Position numbers and translations under genes: made by a program
Part shown: positions 40,656 through 57,800 of the stretch, piece by piece
How positions within the stretch are numbered: position 1 is the stretch's first letter
How the letters are laid out: each line of letters opens with the position of its first letter
Sequence record: SRR20825006_932
Direction: 5' to 3' (one strand)
Length of the DNA: 64,000 nucleotides
Notes under the pieces: generated by a model
The model's input: only the letters and a program-made list of their open reading frames with translations
What the model was told of the DNA's origin: nothing
The model's database searches: none

Positions 40656-40689
40656 AATAACACGCAATTTAGATTTACGCTATTTAGCG

Positions 40690-40723
40690 AAAAAGCTCCT
40701 TATTTGATAAGGAGCTTTTTTTT
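40690..40723. terminator. Bidirectional intrinsic terminator between pdhC and motB
   Basis: aaaaagctccttat-ttg-ataaggagctttttttt. Confidence 0.88.
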
Positions 40724-40772: not shown

Positions 40773-42350
40773 CTAGTTATACTCAAGTAAATAGATGATG
40801 GGAAGTAAATTGAGTTCACTAGCTTTTATTTGTTCAAAGAGTTCGAGAGATCTAGACCAGCTTGAATTTTTTGAAGTGAGCAGGTAGTATTTTCCTTCTA
40901 TAGGTTCAGAAACAGTTGATTCGATATCCAAGTTGGAAAGAATATTTTGAGAGCTCTCAAGAGCTTCACTTTGGCTGGAGAAAGAACCCATTTGTAGTTG
41001 TATTGTAAAGTTGTATTCAGTTTGAGGTTCCTGTACATATCTGATAAAAATATTGGACGAGATACTTTTAGCGTTGAATGCATTGAGCTTGTCAAAAGTA
41101 GCTTTTAAGCTTGAACTAGGAACTGTCAGTACAGTAAACGCATTTGACGAAAACTGATTAATCTCTGTATTTATTTGGTGCTCGTTTAAAAGGCGGCTAA
41201 CATAATTTTCAGCATTCAGTTTTGTTTGGAAATAACCAAGCTGAATTTGATATCTAAGAGGAGAGGGGACAATCTGAGCTTTATTGTAGCATTGATTAAT
41301 GATACCTGTAGTTGCTAGAGTAGGAACCTGGGAGCCAATTTCTTTTTGAACTCTTAATACTTCAGAAAGTGAATTTTTAGCTTTGGTACGTACAGAGAAA
41401 AGATTCGTGTTATAAAAAATCTCCATTTCAAAGTTAGTTTTTTCTTCAACTTCTTCTGCAATCTTCAAACTGTTAAAGAAAGACTCGAATCCACCAATTT
41501 GTACTGAGTAGCTACAAGATTTTATCGATTTACTAGGTGGAGGAGTCACAGCAGGAGGTGGGACAGGAGCTACATCAACTATATCGGGTTGAGTAATAGG
41601 TTTTATTTCTGGTTCAGAAATAGCTTGAACTGGTTTCACTTCTGCTACGTCTCTTTCAAGTGTGTAATATAATCTTAGAACAATCCGTCTATTCATTTCT
41701 TTAGAAACAGGAAGATTATTACCTAACGAATCTAGCAAAATCATAGGTCTAGAGTCGGCATAGCCAGAAGCCTTAAGCCTTGAAGCTGGGATGCCTAGCC
41801 CATTAAAATATCTTACTACGTTAGAAGCTCTAGCTGTAGAAAGTTCCCAATTTGAAGGATAAATTGCGGATGAAATTGGGCTACTATCAGTATGACCTTC
41901 AATATCTATATTGAAGTCATCGTACTTATTTTCTTTTATAGCGAGTAATACCTTACTTAGTTGACTTAGCCCCTTAGGTTTAAGCTTAGCACTTCCTGAG
42001 CTATAAAAATCATCACTTTTAAAACGAATTCTCAAGTCATTAAGATCACGAGAAATACCAATTGAACCATTATCAATATCAGCTTGTAAAAGCTCTTCTA
42101 ATTCGGTCTTAATATCCTCGATAGGAGTAGTAATGTATTCTGTTTCCACTACTGAGGAATCATAAAGATTAGATACAGAAAGATCTTTACTATCTTTAAG
42201 CTGAGAAAATGAGAGCAGAATGATAAGAAACCCTAAAACAATGGTAATAATGTCGAGGTAACTTACCTGCCAACTATCATCATCTTCCTCTTCAAACGGT
42301 AGTTGAGGAAACAGTGAATTTCTCTTGTTATTTGGTGTTCTATCGCTCAA
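40773..42350 (-). CDS. motB: MotB/PomB-like stator subunit with OmpA domain, Pro-rich linker and about three SPOR-like repeats
   Basis: TM WQVSYLDIITIVLGFLIILLSFS with the conserved Asp (D33). OmpA domain IEGHTD, SNWELSTARASNV, GYADSRP, NRRI. C-terminal YSVQIGGF, YQIQLGYF and QLQMGSF. Confidence 0.9.
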   Translation of the reverse strand: MSDRTPNNKRNSLFPQLPFEEEDDDSWQVSYLDIITIVLGFLIILLSFSQLKDSKDLSVSNLYDSSVVETEYITTPIEDIKTELEELLQADIDNGSIGISRDLNDLRIRFKSDDFYSSGSAKLKPKGLSQLSKVLLAIKENKYDDFNIDIEGHTDSSPISSAIYPSNWELSTARASNVVRYFNGLGIPASRLKASGYADSRPMILLDSLGNNLPVSKEMNRRIVLRLYYTLERDVAEVKPVQAISEPEIKPITQPDIVDVAPVPPPAVTPPPSKSIKSCSYSVQIGGFESFFNSLKIAEEVEEKTNFEMEIFYNTNLFSVRTKAKNSLSEVLRVQKEIGSQVPTLATTGIINQCYNKAQIVPSPLRYQIQLGYFQTKLNAENYVSRLLNEHQINTEINQFSSNAFTVLTVPSSSLKATFDKLNAFNAKSISSNIFIRYVQEPQTEYNFTIQLQMGSFSSQSEALESSQNILSNLDIESTVSEPIEGKYYLLTSKNSSWSRSLELFEQIKASELNLLPIIYLLEYN

Positions 42351-42377
42351 AATAGGCTCTTATATAGATATTATAGT

Positions 42378-43175
42378 CTAGATTTTATTTTTGCCACGGC
42401 GCATGTGTGCCTGAAGTTTATCATAAATCTGTAGCGATGTTTTTTGTTCTTGAATTAGGATGATGCCCTCAAGAATAAGTTTTTCTCTAAAATATTGAAG
42501 GGAAGCACTATTATTCATTTTTTTCGCCATAGGTGTGAAAATGAAATTACCAATGATGATGCCATAAAGGGTAGTCATTAATGCGGTAGCTAACCCAGAC
42601 AGTAATGCATCCATCTCGTTAAAACTCGAAAGAATTACGATAAGTCCAAAAAGAGTTCCAAGCATACCAAATACAGGAGAGGTTTTGCCCATGCTAGTTA
42701 TTATCTGATTGGTATTAAGTTGACGAGAATAAGTTTCTTCGATGTAGATTTCGCCTAAATCTCTAAGTTCTTCCGTAGTGTAGTTGGTATCTAGTATAGA
42801 GAACAAGTAACCCTCAAATTGGTCATTAAACTCTTCACTTAGGTCAGAAATAGCTCGTACTCTATCTTTCTTAATTCTTTTTTGCCAGTACAGAATGTTG
42901 TCAATGTCATGGCCAATCAATTCATCATCAATCTTACTGTGAGAAAATAACCTTAAACTTTCTCGGAAAGCGACAAGTACGCTTCTAAAAGGATAGCTGA
43001 TAAAAACACTGGCAGCGATGCCTCCAAAAACAATTGCGAGGCTAGGTAAATTTAAAAATTCATACTTGCTTGGAACGATATCATACTGAGTGAATCCAGT
43101 TACAAGTAAGGTACCCCAAACAAGTATTGAAATCGAAAAGATAAAGCTAAAGATATTAAGTATAGATGTGCGCAT
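42378..43175 (-). CDS. motA: MotA/PomA-like stator subunit
   Basis: Motifs FLNLPSLAIVFGG, SPVFGMLGTLFGLI, ALMTTLYG, FTPMAKK, KLILEGII.IQ. Confidence 0.92.
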   Translation of the reverse strand: MRTSILNIFSFIFSISILVWGTLLVTGFTQYDIVPSKYEFLNLPSLAIVFGGIAASVFISYPFRSVLVAFRESLRLFSHSKIDDELIGHDIDNILYWQKRIKKDRVRAISDLSEEFNDQFEGYLFSILDTNYTTEELRDLGEIYIEETYSRQLNTNQIITSMGKTSPVFGMLGTLFGLIVILSSFNEMDALLSGLATALMTTLYGIIIGNFIFTPMAKKMNNSASLQYFREKLILEGIILIQEQKTSLQIYDKLQAHMRRGKNKI

Positions 43176-43184
43176 TGTATACTA

Positions 43185-43703
43185 CTATTTAAAATTTCGT
43201 TCAAGTTTATCGTTAATCAATCCTTGGTTCTGCAACTCTTTAATAATTACAGAAGAATTTGGGATAGGAATGTTCTTGTCCATTTCAAGTGCTCTCTTCC
43301 AATTTTGAGTAAACAAATCTATTGAGCCCAAGCCAAGATAAATACTTCCTTTTAATGCTATAATATCAGGAGTTTCTTTTATAGCAATAGCCTTATTGAT
43401 TAAATAAAGAGCGTCTTCGTATTCGGCATTATAAAACTGTTGTTGTGCTAGTATATAGTATGTTGTAATTCCGTTTGCTTTACCAAGGTATTGTTTCTCT
43501 AAATCTTTCTTATAATCTTCGGTTAGTTTGATTCTGGCAGGATCCTTATCAGGTGAAATCACTTTTATAGACGCAGTGCTGTCTTCAACTACAGGTACGG
43601 CCTCTGTTAGGTTCTCAATGTTTTTTGAACTCCCACAACCTAAAACTAGAGCATAGATTAATACGCCTAGAAGTAAGCTTTTAAAAAATGATATGTTATT
43701 TAT
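43185..43703 (-). CDS. TPR lipoprotein (frame extends upstream of the listed ORF; putative non-canonical ATA start)
   Basis: The in-frame upstream extension reads (I/M)NNISFFKSLLLGVLIYALVLG-C-GSSK (lipobox Cys at 43635-43637). TPR helices YILAQQQFYNAEYEDAL...ALKGSIY. Confidence 0.7.
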   Translation of the reverse strand: MNNISFFKSLLLGVLIYALVLGCGSSKNIENLTEAVPVVEDSTASIKVISPDKDPARIKLTEDYKKDLEKQYLGKANGITTYYILAQQQFYNAEYEDALYLINKAIAIKETPDIIALKGSIYLGLGSIDLFTQNWKRALEMDKNIPIPNSSVIIKELQNQGLINDKLERNFK

Positions 43704-43728
43704 TGAGACGATAAGTTACGACCTGAAT

Positions 43729-45609
43729 TTATTTTAAAGTATATGATTGTTTTTTCACTTCATTTCTAATTGAATTCATCATCAGTACTTTCGCCTGTTC
43801 AATATTCTGTTCATCATCCAATTCAGCTTGATCAAGTTCAATTCTTATTAAGCGCTGTTCTCGTCTTGGTCTTACAGATAACACTTTATTAATAATTGCA
43901 TCATCTAGTCCTACAAGAGCTCTTAAAAGTATTTCAGTACTTAACTGGTTTACTGCCGCATTCACAATTTTTTCATCGAGCTCAGGAATTTGATCTAAAG
44001 TAATGAATTGTTCTTTGATAATGTTACCAACTGGAGATCCTGTATCTATGAGCTGCTGAATATATCTTTGTTGATCTTTTAAAGGAATCCGTTCTAAAAC
44101 AGGTAAGATATTCTCTGCACCAAGACGTTCTTCTTTTTCAGATTCTAATAAATCCATAGCTTTATCGAAAAGCTTAGAAGAGGTTTCTGTGTGCTGCTTA
44201 TACGATAAAGTATGGATGGTCGCCATATTTATCATAATATGAGTAGCTCGGTCACTATCAAATTTATCAAGAAGATCTGCTGCTTTGTTACCTGGTAAGT
44301 AATCTAGAACTAAAGCAGCCGTCTGAGTGTCTTCATTTTTCATCAATTTAATTATTTGATCATCTGAAATATGACTTAAGAACTTAAAAAGCCCAAGTTT
44401 AGCATGTTTGTGATCAGTTTGTGTATCGGAACCACTCGGCCTTAATACAGAGTCAAAATCTTTAAGTATTTGCTGTTTCTTATCTACTGATAATTCGGGC
44501 AATGTATCTAAAGCTTCAGAAATGGCTATATAATTAGCCGGTTGCATTTCTTTCTTTAATGATCTGACGAGCTGCTTATCTATAGAGGCAATTACTTCGG
44601 CTGCTTTACGAATTCCTTGCTCGTTATCTGTATCAATCCAAAATTCAAAAAGTAGAGATATCTCTTGTGGTGAATTGAAAAACTGCGAGATTAGTTCATC
44701 GATATCCACAGAGGGATCGTCATCTGTAGATGGTGAGCGACGCTGAGCCAAGTGTTGGATATTAGACTGAGGTATAGGGGAATCAAAGCTCATTTCGTTT
44801 CTAAAGCTTTCTCTAGAGTCTTTAGGTGCTTTTTTACCTTTAGTCATAAACTTCCAAAGCACAATAAATAGAATAAGCAGAAGAATTATGATACCAGCCA
44901 CTATTAATACAAGCTTGTATTCACTTATTACTGACAGTAAGGTTGGGGGTGTTGCGCTTACTGAAGGTTCTTCCACGGGTTCTTCGATGACAATAGGAGT
45001 AGGCTTTTCTCTACTAAAATCAGGAATAGATACTCTGGAGATATTAATTCTATCGCCACGTGTAGGATTTGTTTTTATAGCAAAACCAGCTATTAGCTTC
45101 ATAAACTCTATCTCAGGAGCACTAAAAGAAGAGTCAGCGTAGATGTTGATATTTAAGTTAGTGAGCTGTAGAGTCCTAAAAACATTTTGATTAACAATAG
45201 TTTCAGGCGTTTTATCCTCGGTCTGTCTTTCTCGTAGGTTTCCTTCAGGTAAGAAAGGAAGTCCAGGCATGATAATATTTTTTGGACGATCTCTATTTAT
45301 TTTACTTTCTGAGGTAGCGTAGGTCTCGTTAACCATTTCTGCTTTTACGCTCACATCAACAAAAAACATTTTTTTGTCAAAATAGTTGGAGAGAATTTGA
45401 ATTAATTGGGAGTCATAGTTTTGTTCAAGATTAGCAATCTTTAAATCAATAGACTCTGCGGTGCTAACACCCGAAGTAACTTGAGCATTAATTGCGCTAA
45501 TTGCGGAGATCGAAACGATTAGGAAGCATATACAAACAAATATGCGAAGCCCAAAAGAGGCTTTTAAGGAACCAGTAATATTGTTTACTCTTAGTTGATC
45601 TGAATACAT
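43729..45609 (-). CDS. Natural FliF(RBM3/S-ring)-TM-FliG fusion rotor protein
   Basis: aa ~55-198 match FliF RBM3 (LEQ...QILSNYF...VDVSV, PG, EIEFMKLIAGFAIKTNPTRGDRINI). TM at aa 233-252. FliF-C helix FNSPQEISLLFEFWI. FliG-N GIRKAAEVI, FliG-M LFKFL...NEDTQTAALVLDYL, FliG-C FITLDQI..LDEKIV...LLRALVG...RPRREQRLIRIEL. Confidence 0.85.
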   Translation of the reverse strand: MYSDQLRVNNITGSLKASFGLRIFVCICFLIVSISAISAINAQVTSGVSTAESIDLKIANLEQNYDSQLIQILSNYFDKKMFFVDVSVKAEMVNETYATSESKINRDRPKNIIMPGLPFLPEGNLRERQTEDKTPETIVNQNVFRTLQLTNLNINIYADSSFSAPEIEFMKLIAGFAIKTNPTRGDRINISRVSIPDFSREKPTPIVIEEPVEEPSVSATPPTLLSVISEYKLVLIVAGIIILLLILFIVLWKFMTKGKKAPKDSRESFRNEMSFDSPIPQSNIQHLAQRRSPSTDDDPSVDIDELISQFFNSPQEISLLFEFWIDTDNEQGIRKAAEVIASIDKQLVRSLKKEMQPANYIAISEALDTLPELSVDKKQQILKDFDSVLRPSGSDTQTDHKHAKLGLFKFLSHISDDQIIKLMKNEDTQTAALVLDYLPGNKAADLLDKFDSDRATHIMINMATIHTLSYKQHTETSSKLFDKAMDLLESEKEERLGAENILPVLERIPLKDQQRYIQQLIDTGSPVGNIIKEQFITLDQIPELDEKIVNAAVNQLSTEILLRALVGLDDAIINKVLSVRPRREQRLIRIELDQAELDDEQNIEQAKVLMMNSIRNEVKKQSYTLK

Positions 45610-45612
45610 ACC

Positions 45613-48597
45613 CTAATCCATGAACTCTGTTTTAATTAATTGATCAAGAACTTCTACATCAGGAATAAAAATATCAGGGTTAAAACGGATTGCTTTATCC
45701 CAGCTCTGTTGAGCCTCAATTTTATTTCCTTTTAAGTAATATAAACTACCTTTAAGCGCGTACCCTTGTGCTGTTTCAAATAGTTTTAGAGATTCGTTAA
45801 CATACTTAAAAGCGCCTTCAATATCTCTTTGATAAAATTCATTTTGAGCCAAAATAATTAAGCGCAACGTCTCATTTACTTTATTAGATAAAGTCTTCTC
45901 ATATTCGAGAATTTCCGTGCTTTGTTTAATCTCGGTAATGATTTCTTTGGCATTTGCAGGTGGAATATCAGGAGGAGTGTAATCTTCGGGTCGTAGCAAG
46001 AACTCTAAACCCTCCACAAAATCGCCTTCGGGAATAGCTTTAATTTCGAACTCTAATGAACTTGGTTCTGCAGTAGATTTTAGGATACCAAGTTGAGCTT
46101 GTTCAATGGATAGGCTGTATTTTCCTGGTGGAATCTCATAGGCATAGAAACTACCATCGCCGAATGTTCTAAGTTCTGTGGTGTATTCACTATTGATTTT
46201 TTTCAAAGTGAGTTTTAACCCGCCCACGCCTTGTTTAGTGCTGTTTTCAAGTACCTTATGCACAGATCCTTCAATAACTCCAGACATGTAAAAAGGAATT
46301 TCAATTTTTTTGAAGCGGTTAGGATCTGTAATAACACCAAACTTATCGAAATCCGGCACCAGCATTGGATTGTTTATAGCACCTTTATTCAACTCCATGT
46401 TATAGAAGTAATAAGGTTGCATTTGGGAGAAGTAAACTACTCCGTTTTTCGCTGTACTAGAAGCACCTGAACGATTTATACGCAGTGCATTTTCATTTAT
46501 TGGGTCGTCACCCTCATCAAATTTGCTGTTATTATTGTTGTCAACAAACAGTTTTATGGCCGCGCCAGCTCTTCCAACTTGATCCCGGCTTGTAAAGAGG
46601 AAATTGTTGTAATTAGTATCATAGCCAATAGATCCTCGAATATTCTGAGCAAAAGAGCTGACACCTCTAACTTGGCTAAAGGTTGAACTGGATCTAACTT
46701 TATTAAAATCGATGATTAGGTTGAAACGAATAGTATTGAATTGATTTTTAAAATTTCTACCATATGAAAGTTGAAAACGGCCTTGTTTTAAAATATTTCT
46801 AGAGATTAAAAGATCAACTGATTCTACTTCTGAAATCGCAGGCATATATCTAAAACTGGTACGAATAAAAAAGCCACGTAAGAATTTCGGAATATTAGCA
46901 TTTTGTGTAAAATTGTAAGTCATTGATGCTTCAGCGGAGCTAGTAGTAGATGGATTTAAAGGATCAAAAGCTCCAGTAGAACGATCGCTATACCCAAGTC
47001 TTACATTTAGTTTCCCAAGGTTAGTGCTTGCATCTATGCGATAAGAAGTAGAGTTGCCATTTGCTCTGATTCTAGTATATGAAGAAAGGCGAAGATTAAA
47101 AGGGGTGCTTCTAATTAGAAAAGGGTAGAAAAGGCTACCAATGATACGCTTATCGTCACCAGAAGTATTATAAATGTTCTGCGTCTTAGTGTAGTTAGTA
47201 TAGTCTAAGTTAAAGCTCGTTGAATTTGGATATATTACATTCAAAGCTCCTCTATAATAACTATTGGAAACACCTTCTAAAGTAAAAATATACTTTGATA
47301 AAATACGAGAAGATAAAGTGCTGGTTAGCGTGGGTTTATTATTATTAATTCCATCATAGTACTCTACACCTGATTTAAGTGTTAACCATTCAGTGAGTCC
47401 TAATGCACCTGAACCATGTGCAATATAATTTCGCTCAGTGCTTCCCAAAATGGGATTGTCGAGCTGGCCAATATTGAAATTATAATTAAAAACACCTTTT
47501 GGCTGAAAGTTAAATGGAATTTGTATTCGATTAGAACGCTCAATAATCTGACCTGTAGGGCCATATATCTTGATGTCAAACTGGGAGGTTCCGTAAGAAA
47601 TAGGCGCTAAAAAACGATAATCTCCAAGTTCATTTGCCTGCTGGTAATCAATTAATAAATTGTTTAAATAAAGTTCGACTTCAGATTGAGGAAGTGTTGA
47701 ACCATGAACTTCATATTCATCAAAACTAAATCTAGGCTCTATAGGAGAATTAGAGATACGAATACCAGTATATGGATTTTGAATAATACCATCACTTCTA
47801 GTCTGCCCAAGTGTTAGTCGCGTAAGTATAGTGCTTTCTCTAAATAGATAGCGCCATCTAAGGCCATTTGTATTAATAGTGGAAAAATTGTCGTTGGAAC
47901 TTCCATAAATAGTCCCTTGTAAATCTCCGCCAGCTAATTGCAACCCAACATTAGAACTGAAGTTGTATAAATTTTGAGTTGAGTTTACTGTACTAGAGAG
48001 GTTATAGTCAATAAAGCCACCATCAATAAGTGGTTTTACACGGTCATATTTTAAGTCGTAATTCTCAGTTTTATTACGGTTTCTATTAGCACGGTTTCTT
48101 TTTTGGTCACGAAGTATCTTTTGTACTATTGGAATTTCAATACTAGACTCTAAATTGAGCGTAAGATTGCTGAAATCTATTGTAAATCTTAATTGGAATA
48201 GTTTTTCAAATAGAGCGGCCGTAATATAAAAATCTAAATCTGTAAGGAGATAATCCTTAGTAGTAAGTGCTATTATTTTATCTCCAATGCGAGCTACATT
48301 GGTCTGAAAATCAAGACTGTACGGTGTTTGTTTACTAGCATATTTACCACTAACGGTAAGCTCGGAAATGGTATTATCAAATTGTAACTGTGAAAAAAGC
48401 TCGTTTATAGGAAGATAAAACTTATCATCTTTGTAGTAAGCGATTACTACGGTATTTATAACCCCGCGATGCCTAAAGTCTAAATATACCTCGGAGGCTT
48501 CTTCTGTAGAGTTTTGAGCATAAACTTGTGGAGTTAAGCATATACATGCCAGAAATAAACTTAATGATGAGAGGTAATGAAACCAACGTGTGTTCAC
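45613..48597 (-). CDS. Usher-like outer-membrane protein with C-terminal Ig-like domains and TPR module
   Basis: Signal peptide and N-terminal FYLPINELF domain. Barrel with FIDYNL, YTGIRISN, plug VELYLNN..G.YRF..PISYG...IKIYGPTGQ. Then FVDNNNNSKFDEGD, GDGSFY..IPPGKY, and a terminal TPR pair. Confidence 0.78.
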   Translation of the reverse strand: MNTRWFHYLSSLSLFLACICLTPQVYAQNSTEEASEVYLDFRHRGVINTVVIAYYKDDKFYLPINELFSQLQFDNTISELTVSGKYASKQTPYSLDFQTNVARIGDKIIALTTKDYLLTDLDFYITAALFEKLFQLRFTIDFSNLTLNLESSIEIPIVQKILRDQKRNRANRNRNKTENYDLKYDRVKPLIDGGFIDYNLSSTVNSTQNLYNFSSNVGLQLAGGDLQGTIYGSSNDNFSTINTNGLRWRYLFRESTILTRLTLGQTRSDGIIQNPYTGIRISNSPIEPRFSFDEYEVHGSTLPQSEVELYLNNLLIDYQQANELGDYRFLAPISYGTSQFDIKIYGPTGQIIERSNRIQIPFNFQPKGVFNYNFNIGQLDNPILGSTERNYIAHGSGALGLTEWLTLKSGVEYYDGINNNKPTLTSTLSSRILSKYIFTLEGVSNSYYRGALNVIYPNSTSFNLDYTNYTKTQNIYNTSGDDKRIIGSLFYPFLIRSTPFNLRLSSYTRIRANGNSTSYRIDASTNLGKLNVRLGYSDRSTGAFDPLNPSTTSSAEASMTYNFTQNANIPKFLRGFFIRTSFRYMPAISEVESVDLLISRNILKQGRFQLSYGRNFKNQFNTIRFNLIIDFNKVRSSSTFSQVRGVSSFAQNIRGSIGYDTNYNNFLFTSRDQVGRAGAAIKLFVDNNNNSKFDEGDDPINENALRINRSGASSTAKNGVVYFSQMQPYYFYNMELNKGAINNPMLVPDFDKFGVITDPNRFKKIEIPFYMSGVIEGSVHKVLENSTKQGVGGLKLTLKKINSEYTTELRTFGDGSFYAYEIPPGKYSLSIEQAQLGILKSTAEPSSLEFEIKAIPEGDFVEGLEFLLRPEDYTPPDIPPANAKEIITEIKQSTEILEYEKTLSNKVNETLRLIILAQNEFYQRDIEGAFKYVNESLKLFETAQGYALKGSLYYLKGNKIEAQQSWDKAIRFNPDIFIPDVEVLDQLIKTEFMD

Positions 48598-49430
48598 CTT
48601 ATAGCGTAGGGTATGGTTTTGGTGACGGTTTTCATCTGAACGATATCACTAGAAGAAACATCACCACGTTGACTTTCAAATTGAACTTTGATTTTATACT
48701 CACCTTTTGGAAGGTCATTGAGATCTAAGAATTGTCTGTTAGTCCCATCAAAATAAATACTTGTAGAAACAAACGCTTGTTTTACTTCTTGATTGTTACT
48801 GTCAATCAAAGTTGTACTGATAGAGCCTAGAAAAGGAGAGTTTCCTGTTCTTCTATAATCGGTTAATACCGTTAATCTATTATCCTCTCCAAGGTTTGTG
48901 CGAATCTCTTGCACTTCAATACCCGTGGTTGTTTTACCTACTTTGTAAAAAAGGCCAGTAACTTGCTCTATTTTGATAGAAACTCTAGCAGAAACATCAT
49001 TACCTGCATTGCCCACTTCAACCTGTTGGGTTTCTGGGTTAGAAGATGTTTTTATACGAGACCAATAGGTTCCTTCTTTAAGCTCTCTTGTACTTCCTGT
49101 AATTCTAAGGCGTACAATTTGGCGCTGATTAGGCGCTAATACGAAGTTCTGTGGGAATGCACGTACATTTTGAGTGATAGAGCGTGCAGCAGTCATTAAG
49201 CTATCGCCTATAATGTTAGTTCTATTACCTTCTTTATCGGTGGTACTGTACCCAAAGAAAAATTCAATGGCTATTTCTTGAGGTTCATTAGAGCCATTAA
49301 TTACCATATACGTTCCAAACTTTGAATTATCTGAAATAAATATATTGGTTGGTGCAATGGTAACTTGAGCAATGATCCCTGTAGAGCTTAGGGAAAAGAG
49401 TAAAACTAATAAAAGTGTAAGCCTGTTCAT
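48594..49430 (-). CDS. Periplasmic fimbrial chaperone-like protein (PapD/EcpB-like)
   Basis: Signal peptide, then VTIAPTNIFI, FPQNFVLAPNQRQIVRL, EGTYWSRI, RRTGNS. Overlaps the usher start (GTGA). Confidence 0.8.
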   Translation of the reverse strand: MNRLTLLLVLLFSLSSTGIIAQVTIAPTNIFISDNSKFGTYMVINGSNEPQEIAIEFFFGYSTTDKEGNRTNIIGDSLMTAARSITQNVRAFPQNFVLAPNQRQIVRLRITGSTRELKEGTYWSRIKTSSNPETQQVEVGNAGNDVSARVSIKIEQVTGLFYKVGKTTTGIEVQEIRTNLGEDNRLTVLTDYRRTGNSPFLGSISTTLIDSNNQEVKQAFVSTSIYFDGTNRQFLDLNDLPKGEYKIKVQFESQRGDVSSSDIVQMKTVTKTIPYAIR

Positions 49431-49505
49431 CTGTAATTTGATTTGTTTAGATCTTAGAAAGAAATGTAAGTAAATAAGGCTTAATATTATATTTATTAAT
49501 ACTTC

Positions 49506-49535
49506 AAAAAAAAAGTCCCATTTTAGAAATGGGAC
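49506..49535 (-). terminator. Intrinsic terminator between the major pilin and chaperone genes
   Basis: Minus strand reads gtcccattt-cta-aaatgggac followed by nine T. Confidence 0.85.
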
Positions 49536-49561
49536 CTTTAATAAAAGCTGTTTGAAAAAGC

Positions 49562-50086
49562 TTATTGGTAAGTTACAGTAACTGTAATAGGAGTACCATT
49601 AGTAGTAGTTGAGAAACTACCAGCAATAGATGATGCAAGAGTACCACCAAAGTCTAAAGTAGCATCACCAGAACCGTCTAAGTTAATTGTAGCTCCAGAA
49701 GCAAATAGACCAGCACCACCGTCTAATTCAGCACTGTAAGCTGAAGTAGTAAAGGCTACTGGAGTAGAAGTAGGATCAGTATCAAGTGTAGCACCAGTAT
49801 AGTCAACAGTAACAGCTGCACTAGCTGCACCAGCGATAGTAACTTGACCGTAAGTGGTAGTAACACCAACGTTTACGTTAGCAGTTACGTCAGAAGCACC
49901 CGCTTTAAGCGTAGAAGCTAATCAAGCCTGAATAGTACCAAGACTTATGTCACCAGCGTTAGCAACAGTTAAAGCAGTAACTACTTCAGCACTAACAGCA
50001 ACGTTTGCTGTTTCTTGAGCGAATGTGTTAACAGATAATGCAGCTACAAGAGCTAAAGCAGAAAGTATTAATTTGTATGATTTCAT
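49562..50086 (-). pseudogene. Putative major pilin (DUF4402/spore-coat-U-like, 174 codons) interrupted by an in-frame TGA at codon 55
   Basis: ATG at 50086. MKSYKLILSALALVAALSVNTFA|QETANVAVSAEVV...SLGTIQA-TGA(49922-49924)-LASTLKAGASD...LDFGGTL...GSFS...ITVTVTYQ-TAA(49562). The frame is the same throughout, with a penultimate Tyr. Confidence 0.82.
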
Positions 50087-50198
50087 AATGAATATTGGTT
50101 GGTTTAGAATTTCTGAAAACAAGATATTTAAGTAAGGCGGTCTTAAAAAGTTAGATTCTCTTAATTAAAATATTTTAAGAAATGGGGAGTTTTGGGGT

Positions 50199-50726
50199 TC
50201 AATCATATTCTATAAATAAAACTACTTGCCCTGAATAGATGCCATTTGCAATATTACCGACATCGATAGTGCCAAACATGTAAAGAAATAACGCTTGCCA
50301 AACATCAGTTTTTAAATTACTTGAAGATGGTTTGTGAACAGGGAAATACCCAGTGTTATTCTCTAGAGTTGTAGCTAATTTTTGGTTATCAACTCCTGAA
50401 TTGTTAAAAGCTGCATTCAAAGTAATGGGTATTCTATCAGTAGAATTAGAGCTTTCATTAATTAAAAAGTCGGGAGAATTTAATGTTATATAAATATTCT
50501 GCGTGTGATAAGCACGAATACTATATACACCAGAGTTGATAGCGCCTAAGGGAATGTTGTGAAGACCAGAATTAGCAACTAAAGTTCCAAAATTTAGATT
50601 TTGTTCTACTGTTACGCTTAACTCAGGTTCTATATTAATATTTAGATTAATGAACTGTGCGGAAGTACTAGTGTTTACCACAAGAAAGAAAAGTGCTAGG
50701 AAAATAGAACGTTTTGCGCTAGTCAT
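50199..50726 (-). CDS. Minor pilin-like subunit (chaperone-usher type)
   Basis: Likely ATG at 50726 (MTSAKRSIFL). Signal peptide, LNFGTL, ends GIYSGQVVLFIEYD. Confidence 0.7.
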   Translation of the reverse strand: MTSAKRSIFLALFFLVVNTSTSAQFINLNINIEPELSVTVEQNLNFGTLVANSGLHNIPLGAINSGVYSIRAYHTQNIYITLNSPDFLINESSNSTDRIPITLNAAFNNSGVDNQKLATTLENNTGYFPVHKPSSSNLKTDVWQALFLYMFGTIDVGNIANGIYSGQVVLFIEYD

Positions 50727-51360
50727 AACTAATAGTAATTGTGATATCCGCTGTATAAGTACCAGCATCTATCATGCCTATATTTAAAGAACCGTATATA
50801 TATAGGTATGCAGTTTCATTATAAAGAGCCGGGTTATAACCCTGATAGACAGGAGTAGGAGGAGGCCCTGGCGGGTTTGTTCCTCTGTAAAGTACAGGAA
50901 ATTGTGCACTAGCTATATTAGCAGCAACAGTCATTTGTGTTGCTTGATTCGTATCGTTAGCGCCTCTATTTGCATATGAGCCCTCTAGGGTAAATGGAAT
51001 GCGACAAGAAGGATCGCTAAGACAAGCTAAGTTTCCATCTAATAGAAGGTAGTCATCGGCAGTAATATCTACGAGTACATCGAGATATTTTACACCTTCA
51101 ATACTTAAGACTTTTGCATCAAGTATGGTTTTTGATTTCAAACCTTCATTTTGAAACACCATTCCAAATTCTAAATCCTCAGAGGGAAATAAGTCGGTTA
51201 ATGTTACCGCATAAAGGCTACTGTAGTCGCCAAAGTTAATTTCTTGTGCATTGACCTTGTTGCTATTCATAAAGACAAATAGCAACAGTACCCAACTCCC
51301 TTTAAAAAATAAAGGGCTTCGATTCTTAATAAATTGGGTATGTTTTGGGAAAGAAATCAT
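50719..51360 (-). CDS. Minor pilin-like subunit (chaperone-usher type)
   Basis: Signal peptide VNA|Q, LEFGMV, ends GTYTADITITISYD. Confidence 0.68.
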   Translation of the reverse strand: MISFPKHTQFIKNRSPLFFKGSWVLLLFVFMNSNKVNAQEINFGDYSSLYAVTLTDLFPSEDLEFGMVFQNEGLKSKTILDAKVLSIEGVKYLDVLVDITADDYLLLDGNLACLSDPSCRIPFTLEGSYANRGANDTNQATQMTVAANIASAQFPVLYRGTNPPGPPPTPVYQGYNPALYNETAYLYIYGSLNIGMIDAGTYTADITITISYD

Positions 51361-51857
51361 ATATAATCGATTTCTATAGTGAAATCCCCTTGGTAATTAC
51401 CTGGTTGTGCATTTTCGAGATTTAATCTACCCCCAATCCAAAAATAATATCTTCCATCAAGATTAAATTCAATATTTCTATTGTTTTGTTTCAATAATTC
51501 AGAAGTCGGTTGGTTTTCTTCGGTATTGGCTGATATTTCATATGAAAACGTAATACCACCCTTACCTTCAGAGTGAGTAAGCTGTTGCTCAAGTAAGTAG
51601 GTTATGCGAAAAGAAGCTCCAGGAGTTCCTAAAGCAATCATATAACCAGCATTAATATCATTTATCGGATTGATATAAAGTTCTTTTTGCCCAGGCTGCA
51701 AGTCACCAAATCTTAGGCTGTTTACAGTAATGAGCTCGATAGATTGTATAACCTGTGCGCTTACATTGATAGATGCAGTGATAGATTTATTCTCTTGGGA
51801 AAATGCTGTTACATAGCAAGCAAAGGTGAAAAATAATAGGAAATGGAATCTTCTCAT
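51357..51857 (-). CDS. Minor pilin-like subunit (DUF4402-like)
   Basis: Signal peptide AFS|Q, ITASINVSAQVIQ, LRFGDLQPG, FWIGGRL...GNYQGDFTIEIDYI. Confidence 0.75.
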   Translation of the reverse strand: MRRFHFLLFFTFACYVTAFSQENKSITASINVSAQVIQSIELITVNSLRFGDLQPGQKELYINPINDINAGYMIALGTPGASFRITYLLEQQLTHSEGKGGITFSYEISANTEENQPTSELLKQNNRNIEFNLDGRYYFWIGGRLNLENAQPGNYQGDFTIEIDYI

Positions 51858-51967: not shown

Positions 51968-52357
51968 TTAATTTGGGAATGAATCAAAATAATAAGGTGG
52001 GTCAATGATTTCTTTTCCTTTTAAATCTAATGTTCTAGGTAGAAACTCGTTCCGATCTTTATTAACCAATGACTTTATTACATAGTTATAGGTCAAAATC
52101 TGGCCATTGTATCTACTAGGAAATTCGAGGGTAACAGAGTAAACACTGTCAATAGGAGTTTCGTCGGTCATTTGGAAGTTAGTAGTTCTGGTAAATGGGC
52201 GGAGATCACCTTTTACTTCCAAAAACTCTTGCCCAGGTATGAATGTACTGTCTAAGAGCATGGGCTTGAGATTTATATTAAAGGTAATCTTGGTTTGAGC
52301 GGAAGTAGCAGCTGAGAGTGCTATAAAACTGATGAATAGAAGAAATATCTGTTTCAT
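51968..52357 (-). CDS. Small secreted CBM20-like/Ig-fold protein
   Basis: Signal peptide, then ITFNINL...F.PG...VKGD...MTD....DSVYSVTLEF...YNYVI. Confidence 0.55.
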   Translation of the reverse strand: MKQIFLLFISFIALSAATSAQTKITFNINLKPMLLDSTFIPGQEFLEVKGDLRPFTRTTNFQMTDETPIDSVYSVTLEFPSRYNGQILTYNYVIKSLVNKDRNEFLPRTLDLKGKEIIDPPYYFDSFPN

Positions 52358-52386
52358 TAAATGCTGTATTAACTTGTTTAAAGTAA

Positions 52387-53664
52387 TTAATTAGATGGAC
52401 GCTGTATTACTTTGTCTTTCCAGTGAAGGATAGAGAAAACACGTTCACGTGGGAAAGATGGTGGCACATTGTATCTTAATCGTTCGTCATATTGATAATT
52501 TTTTGAGTAGCCAGAAGAAACACCATAACTATTAAAAGTACCAACGGGCCCACGAGCGTCTTGGATCATTCCACCTAAAAGGTTAATGGTACCTCTAGAG
52601 CCACCACTTGTGTAATCTTCAACATAAAAGGAAGAGTTTAGTGCCATTAGAGAAGCTTGTATGGTTAAATCTCTGCTCCCTGAAAACGAATGTGCGTATC
52701 TGTCTACTCGGATATCGTCTTCTGCAACTAAACCTAGAAAGTCAGTGGAGTTAGGGTTGGTAATGGGATTGTCATTATATTGAACGTCACCTACTATTTC
52801 TATATCCCGTTCAGAGTGAATAGTTAGGTTGCCACTTACAGTACCATAGACATCTATTTCGTCGGTCGAAGAAATAATTCCATTGGTAGCCGACATGTCA
52901 TAATTCTGAGGAGTTAACCAGCCAGACCATCTACTGTACTTGGCTATATCAACCGTACCGTTACTTTTTGGAATAACTAATATTGGCTCAGTAAAAGTAA
53001 TTCCGTTAGATCTTGCTAAAGCCTTAAGCTCAGAAACTTGTTGAGACACATCAAAACTTTTATGTGGTGCATTAAAATTAGAACCGCCATTAAATTGAGG
53101 GTTATTGGAATAGGAGCTATGACCAATCCAACTACTAGGGCTAGTTACTAAACCATTAAAAATTGGATTTCCTGCAATCCGAAAAACACCGTTTGTATGT
53201 ACAGGACCACTTAATTCATCATTAGTAGTAAAGTAGATATTGGAGGGTTGATTATCAGTGAAATAAGAATATTTAGAAAACGAATCTCTTGACATCAAAA
53301 CTTCGGTACTTACTGTATAGCCTTCGAAAGAAGCTGTGCTATATAATACTACAGTATATTGATCCCAATTACCAACAGTAACAGAATCATCGAGGTTTAC
53401 AATTGTATTTTGGTCGTAAGTGGTGAGTGTACCCGAGCCTTGCTGGATTGAAGGTGTATTTATTGTTCCTGTCCAATCGTTATCATCTAGCAACCTCTGA
53501 ATAGCTTCATCAACAAGCGATATAGATATATTTCGAGCTTGTTGCTCATAGAAATAATCAATTGTTTTGTTAGGTAACGCGCTAATCCTATTGGATATGC
53601 TTAGTCGTGTCATGCCAACAATTATCACTAATCCACTTACTATAAAAATTAATCCGCGTCCCAT
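52387..53664 (-). CDS. PilX-like protein with C-terminal DUF4900-like beta-helical domain
   Basis: N-terminal hydrophobic helix plus EQQARNISIS. Then FSKYSYFTD, GPVHTNG, LGLVA, GGMIQ..RG.VG, GYSKNYQYDERL...PPSFP. Confidence 0.7.
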   Translation of the reverse strand: MGRGLIFIVSGLVIIVGMTRLSISNRISALPNKTIDYFYEQQARNISISLVDEAIQRLLDDNDWTGTINTPSIQQGSGTLTTYDQNTIVNLDDSVTVGNWDQYTVVLYSTASFEGYTVSTEVLMSRDSFSKYSYFTDNQPSNIYFTTNDELSGPVHTNGVFRIAGNPIFNGLVTSPSSWIGHSSYSNNPQFNGGSNFNAPHKSFDVSQQVSELKALARSNGITFTEPILVIPKSNGTVDIAKYSRWSGWLTPQNYDMSATNGIISSTDEIDVYGTVSGNLTIHSERDIEIVGDVQYNDNPITNPNSTDFLGLVAEDDIRVDRYAHSFSGSRDLTIQASLMALNSSFYVEDYTSGGSRGTINLLGGMIQDARGPVGTFNSYGVSSGYSKNYQYDERLRYNVPPSFPRERVFSILHWKDKVIQRPSN

Positions 53665-53672
53665 ATTAACTC

Positions 53673-54272
53673 CTAGTAATAATTCTTGTTTAAGTTAGTT
53701 GGAAAGAAAGACCGTTTCCAAACCGTGCGATAATAATTAGGAGCCGTATTTACATTCCCATTTTGAAAGTAGGGCTCGGGGCTCTCCATAATTATTTCGA
53801 TCTCAATTTCTTTTACATTGTTAGAGTTACTTGTTGCAGTTCCAACTGCATTTAGGTAGCGGATGCTGAAATAGCTAACAGGGAACTTAGTTATTCCATC
53901 ATCTGTATTAGAGCTAGTTGGTCCTTCTCTAACTAAGTAATAATCGTTGGGGTTCTGAGAGCTTGAAACAGGGCTTGATGGTTTTTCCCAAGACCAAGTT
54001 ACTCTGGTAGCATCTAAAGCATCATTATCAAAAATATCACCCCAAAAAACTATTTCATCATCATCTAAAGTAGATATTACAGTGTTAGTATATTGGTAAC
54101 CAATTCTACTTATATCATGGGAAATTATATCAACTAAGCTTTCCAATTTTTCATTAGTGATGGTAGAAAGTGTTGTTTCTTGAGTATGATTCTGAATCTG
54201 GGCATTAAAGAAAAGGATGCTTAATAATAGCAGCCCACCAACAAGAAAACTTGTAACAATACCAATGTTCAT
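53673..54272 (-). CDS. PilW-like minor pseudopilin
   Basis: N-terminal hydrophobic helix, IISHDISRIGY, terminal FPTNL. Confidence 0.6.
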   Translation of the reverse strand: MNIGIVTSFLVGGLLLLSILFFNAQIQNHTQETTLSTITNEKLESLVDIISHDISRIGYQYTNTVISTLDDDEIVFWGDIFDNDALDATRVTWSWEKPSSPVSSSQNPNDYYLVREGPTSSNTDDGITKFPVSYFSIRYLNAVGTATSNSNNVKEIEIEIIMESPEPYFQNGNVNTAPNYYRTVWKRSFFPTNLNKNYY

Positions 54273-54273
54273 A

Positions 54274-54690
54274 TCACTGCTCGAACGATTTTACAAATTC
54301 TAGATTGATAGGAGTTGTTTTAACGGAAGATTCTTTAACACTAATGGTAATTAGATACTTTTTTAAATTATTAGAAGATGAAATTAAAACGGATTCACCA
54401 TCTATTGTATACTCAGTTGAATACTGGCTGGTTGAGCCATAAGAGATCGTTCTATTTACAGGGAAATTTCTAAAGTAGTAGGAAGAGCTGCTGGAGCGAA
54501 ATTCATTTTCATTAGTAATCCATCTCATTTCGTCTATAATAGCTTGACCAGTAGAGATAGCACGGTATTCTAGCTCAGCGTTAACAATAATTTCGTTATT
54601 ACCCTGAAACGAGCGAACGGTTGTTGAAGAGAGCATCGCAAATGCAACCATTGCTCCCATTAAAAGTATTACATCAGAAAAATCATTCAT
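54274..54690 (-). CDS. PilV-like minor pseudopilin
   Basis: N-terminal hydrophobic helix, AISTGQAIIDEM, KKYLITISV. Confidence 0.55.
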   Translation of the reverse strand: MNDFSDVILLMGAMVAFAMLSSTTVRSFQGNNEIIVNAELEYRAISTGQAIIDEMRWITNENEFRSSSSSYYFRNFPVNRTISYGSTSQYSTEYTIDGESVLISSSNNLKKYLITISVKESSVKTTPINLEFVKSFEQ

Positions 54691-54802: not shown

Positions 54803-57800
54803 TTATTTAATAAGAGTTAATTTTTTAACAAAAATTCCTTCATTCGTAGTTAAGCGATAGAAGTAAACACCCGTAGAAAGGTTATTCGCACTTAGTGTAT
54901 ACTGATAGTTTCCTGCAGTGAGTGTGCTGTTTATAAGGGTATTGATTCTTCTTCCTAAAACATCAAAAATTTCGAGTTTAACAGGACTTGTTTCACTAAT
55001 ACCGTATTCAATGACAGTAACTGGATTAAACGGATTAGGATAATTCTGATTTAAATAAACCCGATTAGGAATGCTGGTTTCAATCTCAGGTGTTGAGACT
55101 TGAAGAGAGAAACGAGTAGATTGTGAAGAACTCTTTTGAGTTACACTCATTTTACCTTTTTGAGAATTAGAAGAAATTTTGCCCTTAGTTCCAAAAAAGA
55201 AGGTGTAACTCCTGTCTGATATTAGGTCAATAATTTCTCCTGTTTCATTATCTAAAAGTGATACAAGCCAATCTTCGGGAATTCCTTTTTCTCCTGAAAG
55301 TCGGATTGTAAATTCTCCAGAATATGGTAATCCATTTTTAAAGGCACTTAAACTAAGTGGGATTTTGATTCTATTCGTTAAAGTAACTGGTAAGCTGTTT
55401 ATGGCAAGTTGGGTTCCGTCATCTAATATAGAATAAAATTCTAATTGGGATTCAGAGAAAGGAACGAGCCTATAGCCATCGTAATGATCAATTTCATTTG
55501 AGCCATCTTCACTAAACATAAAGCTTGTACGCTTGCTCAAACCGTCTGTAACAGCTTCTAACTCTATTACAGGAGTGGTGAAGCTAGATTCTTTTTTAAC
55601 AAAGTTTCCGCCGGTAGTTTTTACAGCCTTTTTTACTATTAGAGAAGGACTAATTGCGTTGGCTTTAGTCCAAAATCCTTGAAATGGTGATATTAAACCG
55701 CTTCCGAGTGTTCCAGTTGTTCCGTTCCAGGTTAAATACTCTCCATTACCGGCGTTTGCGGAGGGATCCCAAACATAGATTGTAGATTCAATGTTGGTTT
55801 TAGTCCAGTTTGCAGCGTCATCCCAGTCAATGGTTGCACCAAATGGATTTCCCACCAAATTCCAACCGGAGTCGGCTGCGGTGGTATAGGTTACCCCAAA
55901 ATCAACTTGCGTACCATTACCGTCAAACTCTTGGCCCGTTACATCGATAGTATCAGGAAGCGGATTGTTGTAAAGAGGATCGGCGACAATATCACCAAAA
56001 AAGTAAACAAAAATACCTTGGCCTTGGGTTAGATTTTGAGCAGAGCTAGTTGGCGCTCTAAATCTCTGATTATCAGTTCCAGGATAGCTCTCAAGGTAAG
56101 TAAGTACATTTGGTTGAAGTGTATCTCCAGGATTAGAGCCTGTATTGTAAAAAGCTCCAGAAAATCCTTGAGTTAACAAGCCATCAATAAAATCTCCATA
56201 GGTAGAAGAAACAGGAGATGAGAGTATACGCCAGCCTTTTACACCGCTTACCTTTCTTTTAAAACGAAGATTACCAGAACCATAAGTTTGAGTGTTGGCA
56301 ATTAAGTTTACACCTGAAGGGATTAACAATTCCCCATCAGTAAGGGCAAGAGTGCCTGAAACTGTAAAGTTTTCGGTTACAAAGACTGTTCCTGGGTTAT
56401 CAATTTCTACATGAACATAGGAGCTTGGACTTATTATAGTTTGATCCGATGAACCGTCAAAAACAACTGTACCTAGAGACACGTCAGCTACATTAATATT
56501 TCCACCAATAGTTAAAGAATCGTTATTAGTTCCTAGAATGCTAGCGTCTCCATTAATATCGCCAGTTACAATAAAATTGCTACTTCCAGAAACGGTAATT
56601 TGGGCTTTAGATTCTAAAGTAAGGCTAGCAATCTGAGTATTAGTAACATCCACAACTGGGTACTCATTTCCAACGGATGGATCTGTTGGGATAAGAACCA
56701 CTGAGGATACTCCAGGTACTGAAGGAACGTTCCAGTTATCAGAATCATCCCAGTCTGAAGCTACTGCTGCAGAGCCTAATTGACTTATCCAGATATGTGA
56801 GAACGCAGCAAACTCAACAGTAGCGTTATCTGTAATTGGATTACTATTTAAAGTTCCTGTAATTGTTGATACTCCGACACTAACAGACGAAGTGAGTGTA
56901 GCAGAATAGGTGCTATTTCCATTATCAGTAACCGAGCCAAGCGTACCAGAAGTGGCTGAAAGCGATACCGTTTCACCACCAACGCTCAAATTATTTCCGT
57001 AAATGTCTTTTAGCTGTACCGTAATTGTTGAAGTACTTGCCCCATCATTCAGAATTACAGCAGGCGAGGAAGATATGGTTGAAGTTGTTTCATCAGCGGC
57101 ACCCGCAGCAACAGTAAATGTATTACTTGTTCCTGTCTCAGAACCTGCGGAATTTGTTGCTGTAATAGTACAATTACCAATACTTGTGATACTAACATTA
57201 TGTGGATTCAAAATACCTGAAACAAAGCTAGCAGTGGTTCCTTGTCCAGAACCCATTGTACATGTGGAAGTAATAAGAACAGTTCCTGTAAAAGTTGTTA
57301 CGGTTGTACCTGTTCCATCAATGGCTGAAATTACAGTATTGAAGGTTTGTCCGGCTGTCTTGGCACTTATATTTCCATAAGGAGCTCGTTCAATTTTGAA
57401 TCCTGCCAATACACCCGCATTAATTACAGTGAATGAGTTACTTGTTTCTGAGTCTAAACCTGAGCCTGATGTTGTTAATGTATAGGTACCAATGTCATCA
57501 AAAACGAGGTCATTGAAATCAGCAATTCCTAATGAATTTGTATTTACAGTAGTTGTACCTGAAAGTGCACCAGGACCTGAAGCCTTTGCAATACTTATAC
57601 TTGTGCCACTTGTCTCAATAGAATTACCAAACTGATCTACTAATTGAGCTCGCACTGAGGGGGTAATGGTACTATCAACATTAGTTATGGATGGCTGTTG
57701 AACGAATGTCAAACTATCTGCAGCACCAGCAATCATAGTCAGGGTTCCATAATTGGTGCCACCACCTTGACCTGTTGAGCCTGTATTAGTAATATTTTTG

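Follow-up and report, generated by a model that had tools for sequence, protein, structure and literature searches.

A predicted flagellar-type motor encoded as an apparent optional cassette within the usher of a Balneola pilus operon

Introduction

The assembly of chaperone-usher pili at the bacterial outer membrane is the textbook example of a process that runs without energy input. To our knowledge, none of these systems requires an energy source or has a partner in the inner membrane, and every FliG/FliF rotor that we know of belongs to a flagellum. In a 64,000-nucleotide (nt) stretch of DNA from sequence record SRR20825006_932 (hereafter, the window), from an organism of the genus Balneola, the minus strand from 51857 to 40773 is a compact row of genes for four pilin-like proteins, a probable chaperone, an usher, a FliF-FliG fusion, a TPR lipoprotein, MotA and MotB. 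What are a flagellar-type rotor and stator doing in a pilus operon? An earlier interpretation made from the letters alone (the sequence-only reading) had proposed an ion-driven motor that acts on an usher-built filament, and this proposal is followed up here.

In this paper we compare the locus with related loci among 216 Balneolaceae genomes, identify its proteins by profile searches and predicted folds, and weigh what the motor may do for the pilus. The new finding, drawn from gene comparisons, is that the motor appears to be an optional cassette spliced into the usher. No description of such a system was found in the literature, mostly titles and abstracts, on FliG or MotAB with an usher, on non-flagellated bacteria, or on Balneola, Chlorobi or Ignavibacteria. 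Searches for 'FliF-FliG fusion' returned only engineered Salmonella and Vibrio constructs, and those for DUF4402 returned nothing.

Results

The usher and the motor cassette

By sequence (Pfam, NCBIfam and PDB profiles) nothing usher-like was found in the protein of 994 amino acids (aa) encoded between the chaperone and the fusion, and only its TPR tail found PDB relatives. It is identified as an outer-membrane usher by its predicted fold only. An AlphaFold model built from 43 homologs (pLDDT 82.2) returned FimD (3rfz_E, E 1.1e-30 over 910 columns) and PapC (7lhg_C, E 1.8e-24) as the top-ranked Foldseek matches, and VIA-align superposed residues 173-866 on FimD 123-833 with Z 22.7 (620 residues, root-mean-square deviation (rmsd) 11.3). 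Pore-only chains aligned with Z 18 and an rmsd of about 4, against Z of 13.5 or less for ordinary porins. The usher-like character proposed for this protein was thus recovered at the level of fold. Its TPR tail is 33% identical over 109 aa to the TPR lipoprotein of the same locus (BLASTP, E 5e-13) and is, on this comparison, a paralog of the motor lipoprotein.

The usher family is present in 148 of the 216 Balneolaceae genomes and the fusion in 51. In every one of the 51 fusion-bearing genomes the usher match extends into the TPR tail (query end at or beyond residue 967); in the other genomes it stops at about 870-920, within frames of 1140-1570 aa. Nine motor-less loci were compared gene by gene. 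None has a fusion, TPR, motA or motB gene, and none of their ushers has the TPR tail, the match ending at about residues 880-897. The C-terminal ~260 aa of all nine ushers match the tail of MotB (HMM positions ~281-551 of 552 in the hidden Markov model, E 1e-16 to 1e-44), a domain that Pfam assigns to SPOR in 24 of 24 MotB orthologs and in the long ushers. In seven of the nine the operon of pilins, chaperone and usher is complete and is preceded by the same genes upstream; it is partial in L068, which is cut at a contig end, and in L070. Open reading frames (ORFs) of equal size (~420, 327 and 366 aa, then often ~890 aa) follow downstream in seven of the nine, and L064 and L065 have other downstream flanks.

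Read from these alignments, a cassette made of the TPR tail, the fusion, the TPR lipoprotein, MotA and residues 1 to ~270 of MotB lies exactly between the core of the usher and a SPOR tail. This tail changes host: in loci without the motor it is part of the usher, in loci with the motor it is part of MotB.

A quick IQ-TREE phylogeny of the usher core (25 TPR-type, 9 SPOR-type and one outgroup sequence) showed the two states interleaved. Parsimony gave nine changes, at least six of them forced by starred branches, a number no better than that for shuffled labels (mean 8.1), and three starred sister pairs hold opposite states. The tree fits gains or losses of the cassette alike. In sister pairs the SPOR tails of usher and MotB are 21-28% identical, against 59-74% for the usher cores. 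A simple recent swap of the cassette by way of homologous flanks is thus unsupported on the 3' side, and the low identity of the SPOR tails argues that the exchanges were not simple recent swaps.

The FliF-FliG fusion

The Pfam models FliG_N, FliG_M and FliG_C all match above cut-off within residues 332-620 of the 626-aa fusion, and the search against PDB profiles returned FliG (1lkv, E 2.1e-19). YscJ_FliF of Pfam has no match in the protein. In the predicted structure (pLDDT 73), two transmembrane (TM) helices bracket an alpha-beta-beta-alpha-beta domain with a long hairpin, in a periplasmic part of about 190 aa. Foldseek matched the model to full-length FliG (E 1e-7) and to RBM3 and collar, the 'S-ring' part, of FliF from Salmonella and Vibrio (E 3.5e-5 to 5.5e-4). 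With VIA, residues 48-196 aligned with Salmonella FliF 228-438 at Z 13.2-14.1, the next unrelated folds reaching 9.3 at most, and the best core fit was to 7cg7_A (rmsd 1.9 over 99 residues); residues 331-622 aligned with FliG 5-320 at Z 15.9. According to the model, then, the protein is a natural fusion of the distal half of FliF with the whole of FliG, from which RBM1 and RBM2 are absent. In flagella, RBM1 and RBM2 of FliF hold the export gate.

Two features of the fusion bear on its partners. The FliM-binding EHPQR motif is degenerate, E being kept in 26 of 26 sequences and H, P and R lost, which fits the absence of FliM. At the tip loop of the collar hairpin, the peptide PGLPF is invariant in all 43 fusion sequences, and the P and G of this peptide recur in every module type. 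The loop is disordered in the model. Such invariance fits a docking peptide, and the loop is a candidate for one.

The abstract of PMC11481574 describes engineered end-to-end fusions of FliF and FliG in Salmonella and Vibrio that still form an S-ring. Each half of the fusion model has a match in a PDB chain that carries both names (8z4d_1, 'Flagellar M-ring protein, Flagellar motor switch protein FliG'). Those fusions, however, are laboratory constructs with full-length FliF inside a flagellum, whereas the fusion of the locus is natural, lacks RBM1 and RBM2 and stands without a flagellum. Salmonella mutants with fused FliF and FliG are reportedly motile.

A profile of the FliF-like N-terminal third found 468 cluster representatives (E of 0.001 or less) among 1.84 billion proteins. 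Among the best 150 of these, 107 are at least 550 aa long and every one of the 107 also matches the FliG part, the fusion architecture being common to at least 107 clusters at 50% identity. By this count natural FliF-FliG fusions form a sizeable, unnamed family. About 40 of the same best 150 are 250-390 aa long and have no FliG part (for example P0245, P0253 and P0271); the match in these short proteins often begins at residue 60-130, and they may be stand-alone RBM3-like ring proteins or fragments.

The stator and the TPR lipoprotein

By profile scores, MotA and MotB of the locus are flagellar stator subunits and not Tol/Exb proteins. MotA scored against NCBIfam as MotP (E 9.5e-34) and MotA (E 1.9e-28), and only at E 0.014 as TolQ and E 0.055 as ExbB; a Tol-Pal or ExbBD-TonB energizer was rejected on these values. 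MotB matched the Pfam families OmpA (E 1.3e-14), MotB_plug and SPOR, all three of which match in 24 of 24 MotB orthologs, and NCBIfam MotD (E 4.6e-37). A Zorya (ZorAB) system was also rejected. MotA has 265 aa, against 500-700 for ZorA, and the ZorA models match its channel only (E 7e-5, 20 bits); MotB scored 58 bits as ZorB against 128 bits as flagellar MotD, and the three other proteins of the cluster that were tested had no PADLOC match.

Key residues were compared between the window, 24-25 orthologs, and E. coli MotA, MotB and FliG from NC_000913, whose letters match the residue numbering used here. The channel Asp of MotB (D33, equivalent to D32) is present in 25 of 25 sequences, as are the equivalents of P173 and P222 of MotA. 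The position of MotA R90 is R or K in 25 of 25, and the equivalents of FliG R281 and D289 (R583 and E591) are kept in 26 of 26. PMC12505986 gives the stator-rotor contact pairs as R90 with D288-D289 and E98 with R281, and one member of each of these pairs is invariant in the locus sequences. Within the cluster, conservation is highest for MotA (56-98% identity, against 36-90% for the fusion).

A homolog of the TPR lipoprotein was found beside motA-motB in every motor-module type seen. The lipoprotein of the sequence-only reading does have a lipobox (LGC), but its signal peptide and lipobox (43560-43690) are encoded 5' of every ATG, GTG or TTG that could serve as a start. Where the relative L006 has its TTG start, the window and G001, the nearest genome examined, have TTA. 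Translation may begin at a non-canonical codon (ATA, ATC or ATT), or else the protein may lack its signal peptide. In Vibrio, the MotX/MotY T-ring includes a periplasmic repeat protein of the TPR/Sel1 kind that is encoded with the stator and needed by it. MotX is a possible analog of the TPR lipoprotein.

Absence of a flagellum

G001 shares 77% of the words of the window and is 99% complete. It has no match to FHIPEP, Flagellin_N, YscJ_FliF, FliMN_C, Flg_bb_rod, FliP or FliM (Pfam identifiers tested with this result: PF00771, PF00813, PF00460, PF00669, PF02154 and PF01052), che genes not having been searched. Its single FliG_C match is the fusion gene, and two of its three MotA_ExbB genes lie outside the locus. 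FlhA was found in 76 of the 216 Balneolaceae genomes and in none of the 23 of the genus Balneola. We conclude from gene content that marine Balneola with the locus probably have no flagellum. A motor that serves a flagellum encoded elsewhere, the case that the sequence-only reading had named against itself, is not what G001 holds, since export, rod, switch and filament genes have no matches there.

The expectation that carriers lack other flagellar genes is true of G001 for the seven families and, as far as FlhA tells, of 35 of the 51 fusion-bearing genomes. It does not extend to the remaining 16 of the 51, which have FlhA along with a separate FliG of about 350 aa.

Distribution of the motor module

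Full-length fusion orthologs (E of 1e-110 or less) are spread over nine genera in the 51 genomes. In 25 loci from eight genera the ten genes from the first pilin to motB have the same order and strand and all are open, so that the conserved synteny of usher, fusion and motAB that had been asked for is there; one of these loci stops at a contig end after the TPR gene, and the major pilin is detectable in 20 of the 25. In G018, of the same genus, the usher match is interrupted by an internal TAA and no more than a piece of the fusion is left (residues 24-202, in a frame of 298 aa); the locus may be decaying there.

Many of the fusion-bearing genomes also have a second fusion, a paralog with 23-28% identity. 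This paralog is found in a sister family too, where at L010 it follows a TPR-bearing usher of 1533 aa, with two chaperones in the locus. Modules of fusion, TPR protein, MotA and MotB are also found with no usher, namely in two Balneolaceae paralog loci (L009 and L016) and in four loci of another Bacteroidota family with the order X-TPR-motA-motB-fusion. Another 22 usher-less loci of the X-TPR-motA-motB-fusion type lie in metagenome-assembled genomes (MAGs) labelled Ignavibacteriae, Bacteroidota or Chitinophagaceae. The usher-less modules indicate that the constant core is fusion, TPR protein, MotA and MotB, and that the outer partner varies.

Protein X, a secreted protein of about 360-385 aa, is present in every usher-less module and missing where the usher is present, and is a candidate for an alternative outer-membrane partner of the motor. 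Its C-terminal residue is F or L in four of five copies and N in the fifth. It has no Pfam match at E of 0.01 or less (OMP_b-brl_2 reached a chance-level E 0.021) and no sequence relative in the PDB. Atlas matches to clusters of LpoB/CsgG type and of OMP beta-barrels (score 0.95-0.97) are leads only.

Genes of the pilin-like proteins and the probable chaperone

The order of subunits, chaperone and usher, as in chaperone-usher systems, holds in 25 of 25 loci. The 278-aa protein next to the usher is probably a PapD-like chaperone, judged by its place and by PapD_N, which matches in 5 of 27 members of its family (best E 6.7e-4). An Atlas feature match to a cluster auto-named PapD chaperone (score 0.98) is a lead only, and the sequence-profile search of solved structures in the PDB found no match for this protein or for the 166-aa pilin. 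HMMs built here for the 213-aa pilin-like protein cross-match the neighboring pilin families.

The major pilin lies where the sequence-only reading had put it, but its reading frame is not intact, an in-frame TGA standing at 49924-49922. The gene is open at 176 aa in the relatives G001 and L006, and DUF4402 matches in 7 of 20 orthologs (best E 1.2e-12). The codon is Gly (GGA or GGT) in relatives and GGA in four of four public runs, and the contig of the best-matching public run differs from the window solely at this TGA. Recoding of the TGA, by selenocysteine or read-through, was rejected on these codons. The TGA is either a private nonsense change or an assembly error.

The major pilin is 78% identical to that of G001, against 98-100% for the flanking genes. 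In 200-nt bins, identity between the window and G001 is about 100% across the cluster except at 50000-48000, where it is 75-94%. This divergent block takes in the mature part of the major pilin, the chaperone and the usher's first ~200 residues, and a second allele of it (~48000-50000) was found in one metagenome run. In chaperone-usher systems the mature pilin, the chaperone and the N-terminal region of the usher touch each other. Because the diverging parts are those that contact each other, the block looks like an exchangeable specificity cassette of pilin, chaperone and usher N-terminal domain.

Locus layout

The coordinates of the features are collected in Table 1. Gene order, strand and spacing are as the sequence-only reading had them. 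The chaperone gene (49430-48594) overlaps the usher gene (48597-45613) by 4 nt, and gaps of 3 nt, 9 nt and 27 nt follow the usher stop (before the fusion start, 45609-43729), the TPR gene (before motA, 43175-42378) and motA (before motB, 42350-40773), respectively. The terminator placed after motB corresponds to a 15-bp hairpin between the convergent genes of motB and an E2 acyltransferase (40689-40721); it is not the only one, a second terminator-like hairpin at 49539-49511 having been missed. The fusion was correctly seen and holds a complete FliG, but its FliF part is RBM3 and beta-collar and not a whole FliF.

Four genes immediately upstream (51968-54690) adjoin the pilus operon in 14-17 of the 25 motor loci and in seven of the nine motor-less loci, and possibly belong to the pilus system. 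Beyond them, 54803-62326 on the minus strand encodes a 2507-aa surface protein with DUF2341, Laminin_G_3, Invasin_D3 and a C-terminal sorting domain of the type IX secretion system (T9SS). The gene for this T9SS-tailed protein adjoins the pilin genes directly in several relatives, and another giant T9SS-tailed protein precedes the usher-less motor module in L012.

Table 1. Positions of the features of the pilus-motor locus in the window, and of protein X in usher-less loci
Feature	Position	Strand	Remarks
Four upstream genes (129, 425, 199 and 138 aa)	51968-54690	-	DUF4900 in the 425-aa protein (E 9.8e-9); three start with a pilin-like hydrophobic helix
Pilin-like subunit, 166 aa, signal peptide	51357-51857	-	Pfam DUF4402 E 9e-8, above cut-off; ortholog in 25/25 loci
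Pilin-like subunit, 213 aa, no Pfam family	50719-51360	-	ORF; ortholog in 25/25 loci
Pilin-like subunit, 189 aa, ORF start perhaps internal	50199-50768	-	DUF4402 E 0.0022, below cut-off; ortholog in 25/25 loci
Major pilin gene, DUF4402 type, hypervariable gene of the cluster	49564-50086	-	same-frame read-through across TGA 49924-49922
Terminator-like hairpin 3' of the major pilin gene	49511-49539	-	13-bp stem and T run; consensus match only
PapD-like periplasmic chaperone (probable), 278 aa	48594-49430	-	between pilins and usher; PapD_N E 0.011 (weak)
Usher core, residues 1-882 (by predicted fold)	45952-48597	-	N-terminal domain, beta-barrel with plug-like insert, two C-terminal beta domains
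Usher TPR tail, residues ~883-994	45613-45951	-	helices 883-987 in model; TPR_2 E 3.1e-5
FliF(RBM3 + beta-collar)-TM-FliG fusion, 626 aa (by model)	43729-45609	-	TM 18-39, periplasmic 48-196, TM 232-255, FliG 331-622
TPR lipoprotein, ~160 aa, lipobox LGC	43185-43673	-	weak TPR Pfam matches; tblastn ortholog in 25/25 loci
MotA-type stator A subunit, 265 aa	42378-43175	-	MotA_ExbB E 2.2e-17
MotB-type stator B subunit, 525 aa	40773-42350	-	plug, TM with Asp33, OmpA-like domain, Pro-rich linker, SPOR-type tail (~270-525)
Terminator-like palindromic hairpin	40689-40721		15-bp stem, flanked by A and T runs; consensus match only
Protein X copies	L009:11060-12139, L016:7142-8299, L012:5935-7086, L014:245-1351, L011:13565-14650		

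Discussion

From the observed gene content, folds, residues and synteny we infer that the motor is mechanically coupled to the usher pore or to its fiber, a reading that stands about evenly balanced between right and wrong. The fusion would form an MS-ring-like ring in the inner membrane, made of a single protein, with a FliG ring beneath it. Units of MotA and MotB, anchored to the wall through the OmpA-like and SPOR domains of MotB, would turn this ring, ion flow through MotAB (MotB Asp33) pushing on the torque helix of FliG (Arg583, Glu591). Docked to the ring or to the stator, the lipoprotein and the usher's own TPR tail could transmit the motion of the ring through the periplasm to the usher. 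The motor would thereby work mechanically on the pore or on the fiber within, whether as rotation, torsion, gating or retraction. That most relatives build this pilus with no motor implies that the motor adds something to it and does not enable its assembly.

For the ion-driven motor acting on an usher filament of the sequence-only reading, the parts, the synteny and a domain link between usher and motor were found; rotation, retraction or energizing of the filament are things that such a motor may do. The link is stronger than adjacency because the TPR tail occurs only with the motor, because this tail is paralogous to the lipoprotein and because the SPOR domain switches host. A predicted complex of the usher TPR tail with the periplasmic parts of the fusion and MotB, computed without alignments, scored 0.01 against a mark of 0.34, a value that speaks neither for nor against contact.

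Several observations weigh against mechanical coupling. FliF RBM1 and RBM2 are missing, and there is no rod or other known shaft to carry movement across the periplasm. FliG K264, D288 and R297 are not kept, two of the five classical torque-helix charges being retained, and the equivalent of MotA E98 is mostly Ser. Of the 148 usher-bearing genomes, 97 have no fusion ortholog and, because most ushers are without a motor, the motor is dispensable for the pilus family. The module also exists with no usher nearby (the two and four loci above), so its primary partner may be a different one. The chaperone assignment is weak, with PapD_N in a minority of the family and no PDB sequence match for chaperone or pilin, and among the public sequencing runs that match the locus no RNA run is listed.

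The alternative that survives best, though we think it unlikely, makes the cassette an anchoring or positioning device, a static or slowly remodelling scaffold that fixes the usher at a site on the wall in place of the usher's own SPOR anchor; ion flow would at most regulate assembly, and the pilus would not rotate. That SPOR sits on the usher where there is no motor and on MotB where there is one is what would be expected if the cassette takes over anchoring, and in most genomes the pilus family does without the motor. A static scaffold, however, needs neither the MotB Asp and the MotA prolines (25 of 25 each) nor the torque-helix Arg and Glu (26 of 26), and the strong conservation of MotA is what a functional ion channel would show.

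A self-contained envelope motor with an output of its own, for example the TPR lipoprotein or a surface adhesin, could also have hitch-hiked in the operon, co-regulated with the pilus and without a mechanical link to it. This we judge improbable. The modules of L009, L016 and the four loci of another family, always with protein X, the 22 usher-less loci in MAGs and the large T9SS-tailed surface proteins near two loci are all in its favor, but chance insertion does not explain why the usher carries a TPR paralog only where the motor is present (51 of 51 against none of nine). The insertion, moreover, keeps the reading frames on both sides, the association persisted or recurred over the at least six state changes on the usher tree, and a third module type (L010, sister family) again pairs a fusion with a TPR-bearing usher.

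It is less probable again that the locus is a mechanosensor, in which the load on the pilus passes to ring and stators and is read out in the cytoplasm through FliG, serving surface sensing and not powering. Load-dependent recruitment of stators works in flagella, FliG is cytoplasmic, and the degenerate EHPQR motif means that any cytoplasmic partner is not the usual switch complex; no cyclase, kinase or che gene, however, was seen inside the ten-gene block, and the conserved features are those of torque generation. That the module is a decaying remnant of a lost flagellum is very improbable indeed, for although the genus lacks FlhA and other genera in the family have it, no cluster gene is interrupted in the loci that were compared, the key residues are invariant, and the fusion architecture recurs in at least 107 clusters. 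The fusion is also found alongside complete sets of flagellar genes, each with a FliG of its own.

The locus differs from each of the systems that it resembles. Like the rotor-stator core of the flagellum, it has FliF RBM3 and beta-collar, a three-domain FliG, and MotA and MotB with plug, channel Asp and OmpA-like anchor, and it keeps the equivalents of FliG R281 and D289 and a basic residue at MotA R90. Unlike that core, it joins FliF and FliG in one polypeptide with RBM1 and RBM2 missing and the FliM-binding motif degenerate, its MotB has an extra SPOR tail, the module sits in a pilus operon, and G001 has no matches for export gate, rod, hook, filament or FliM/FliN. The module could have arisen from the flagellar motor by simplification, or it could be related to a pre-flagellar core of that motor.

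With chaperone-usher pili of the FimD/PapC kind (the closest comparison is presumably the 'archaic' sigma/Csu class) the locus shares the usher fold with barrel, plug-like insert and C-terminal domains, the order of subunits, chaperone and usher, a hairpin after the major subunit gene, and joint variation of major subunit, chaperone and usher N-terminal domain. It differs in that its subunits are of the DUF4402 type with no solved sequence relative, its chaperone is only weakly PapD-like and its usher bears a TPR or SPOR extension.

GldLM of the T9SS, ExbBD-TonB and TolQRA are likewise ion motors of the MotAB superfamily in the inner membrane that serve an outer-membrane machine. They use, however, a periplasm-spanning subunit of their own (GldM, TonB or TolA) and have no FliG/FliF rotor; among these 5:2 ion motors the stator of the locus scores with flagellar MotA/MotP (E 1e-28 to 1e-34) and has a FliG ring to push. 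The abstract of 10.1101/2024.09.23.614571 describes a rotary T9SS.

Conclusions

A wider proposal, doubtful though worth stating, is that the FliF/FliG ring, MotAB and the TPR protein are a portable rotary power pack for outer-membrane pores that secrete fibers, with a pilus that is spun, twisted or reeled in Balneolales and with protein X as the partner in other Bacteroidota. Sister strains that have the same pilus operon with and without the cassette are natural controls, in which the contribution of the motor to the pilus is directly testable. A natural minimal rotor, made of one protein with no switch and no export gate, would be useful for the study of torque generation and of motor evolution. 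If mechanical coupling is true, a FliF-FliG ring with stators wired to an usher in non-flagellated bacteria would break both of the rules with which we began, that a rotor means a flagellum and that these pili are free of energy input, and a pilus spun, twisted or reeled by it would be a second kind of rotary surface appendage derived from flagellar motor parts, built without the flagellar shaft or filament.

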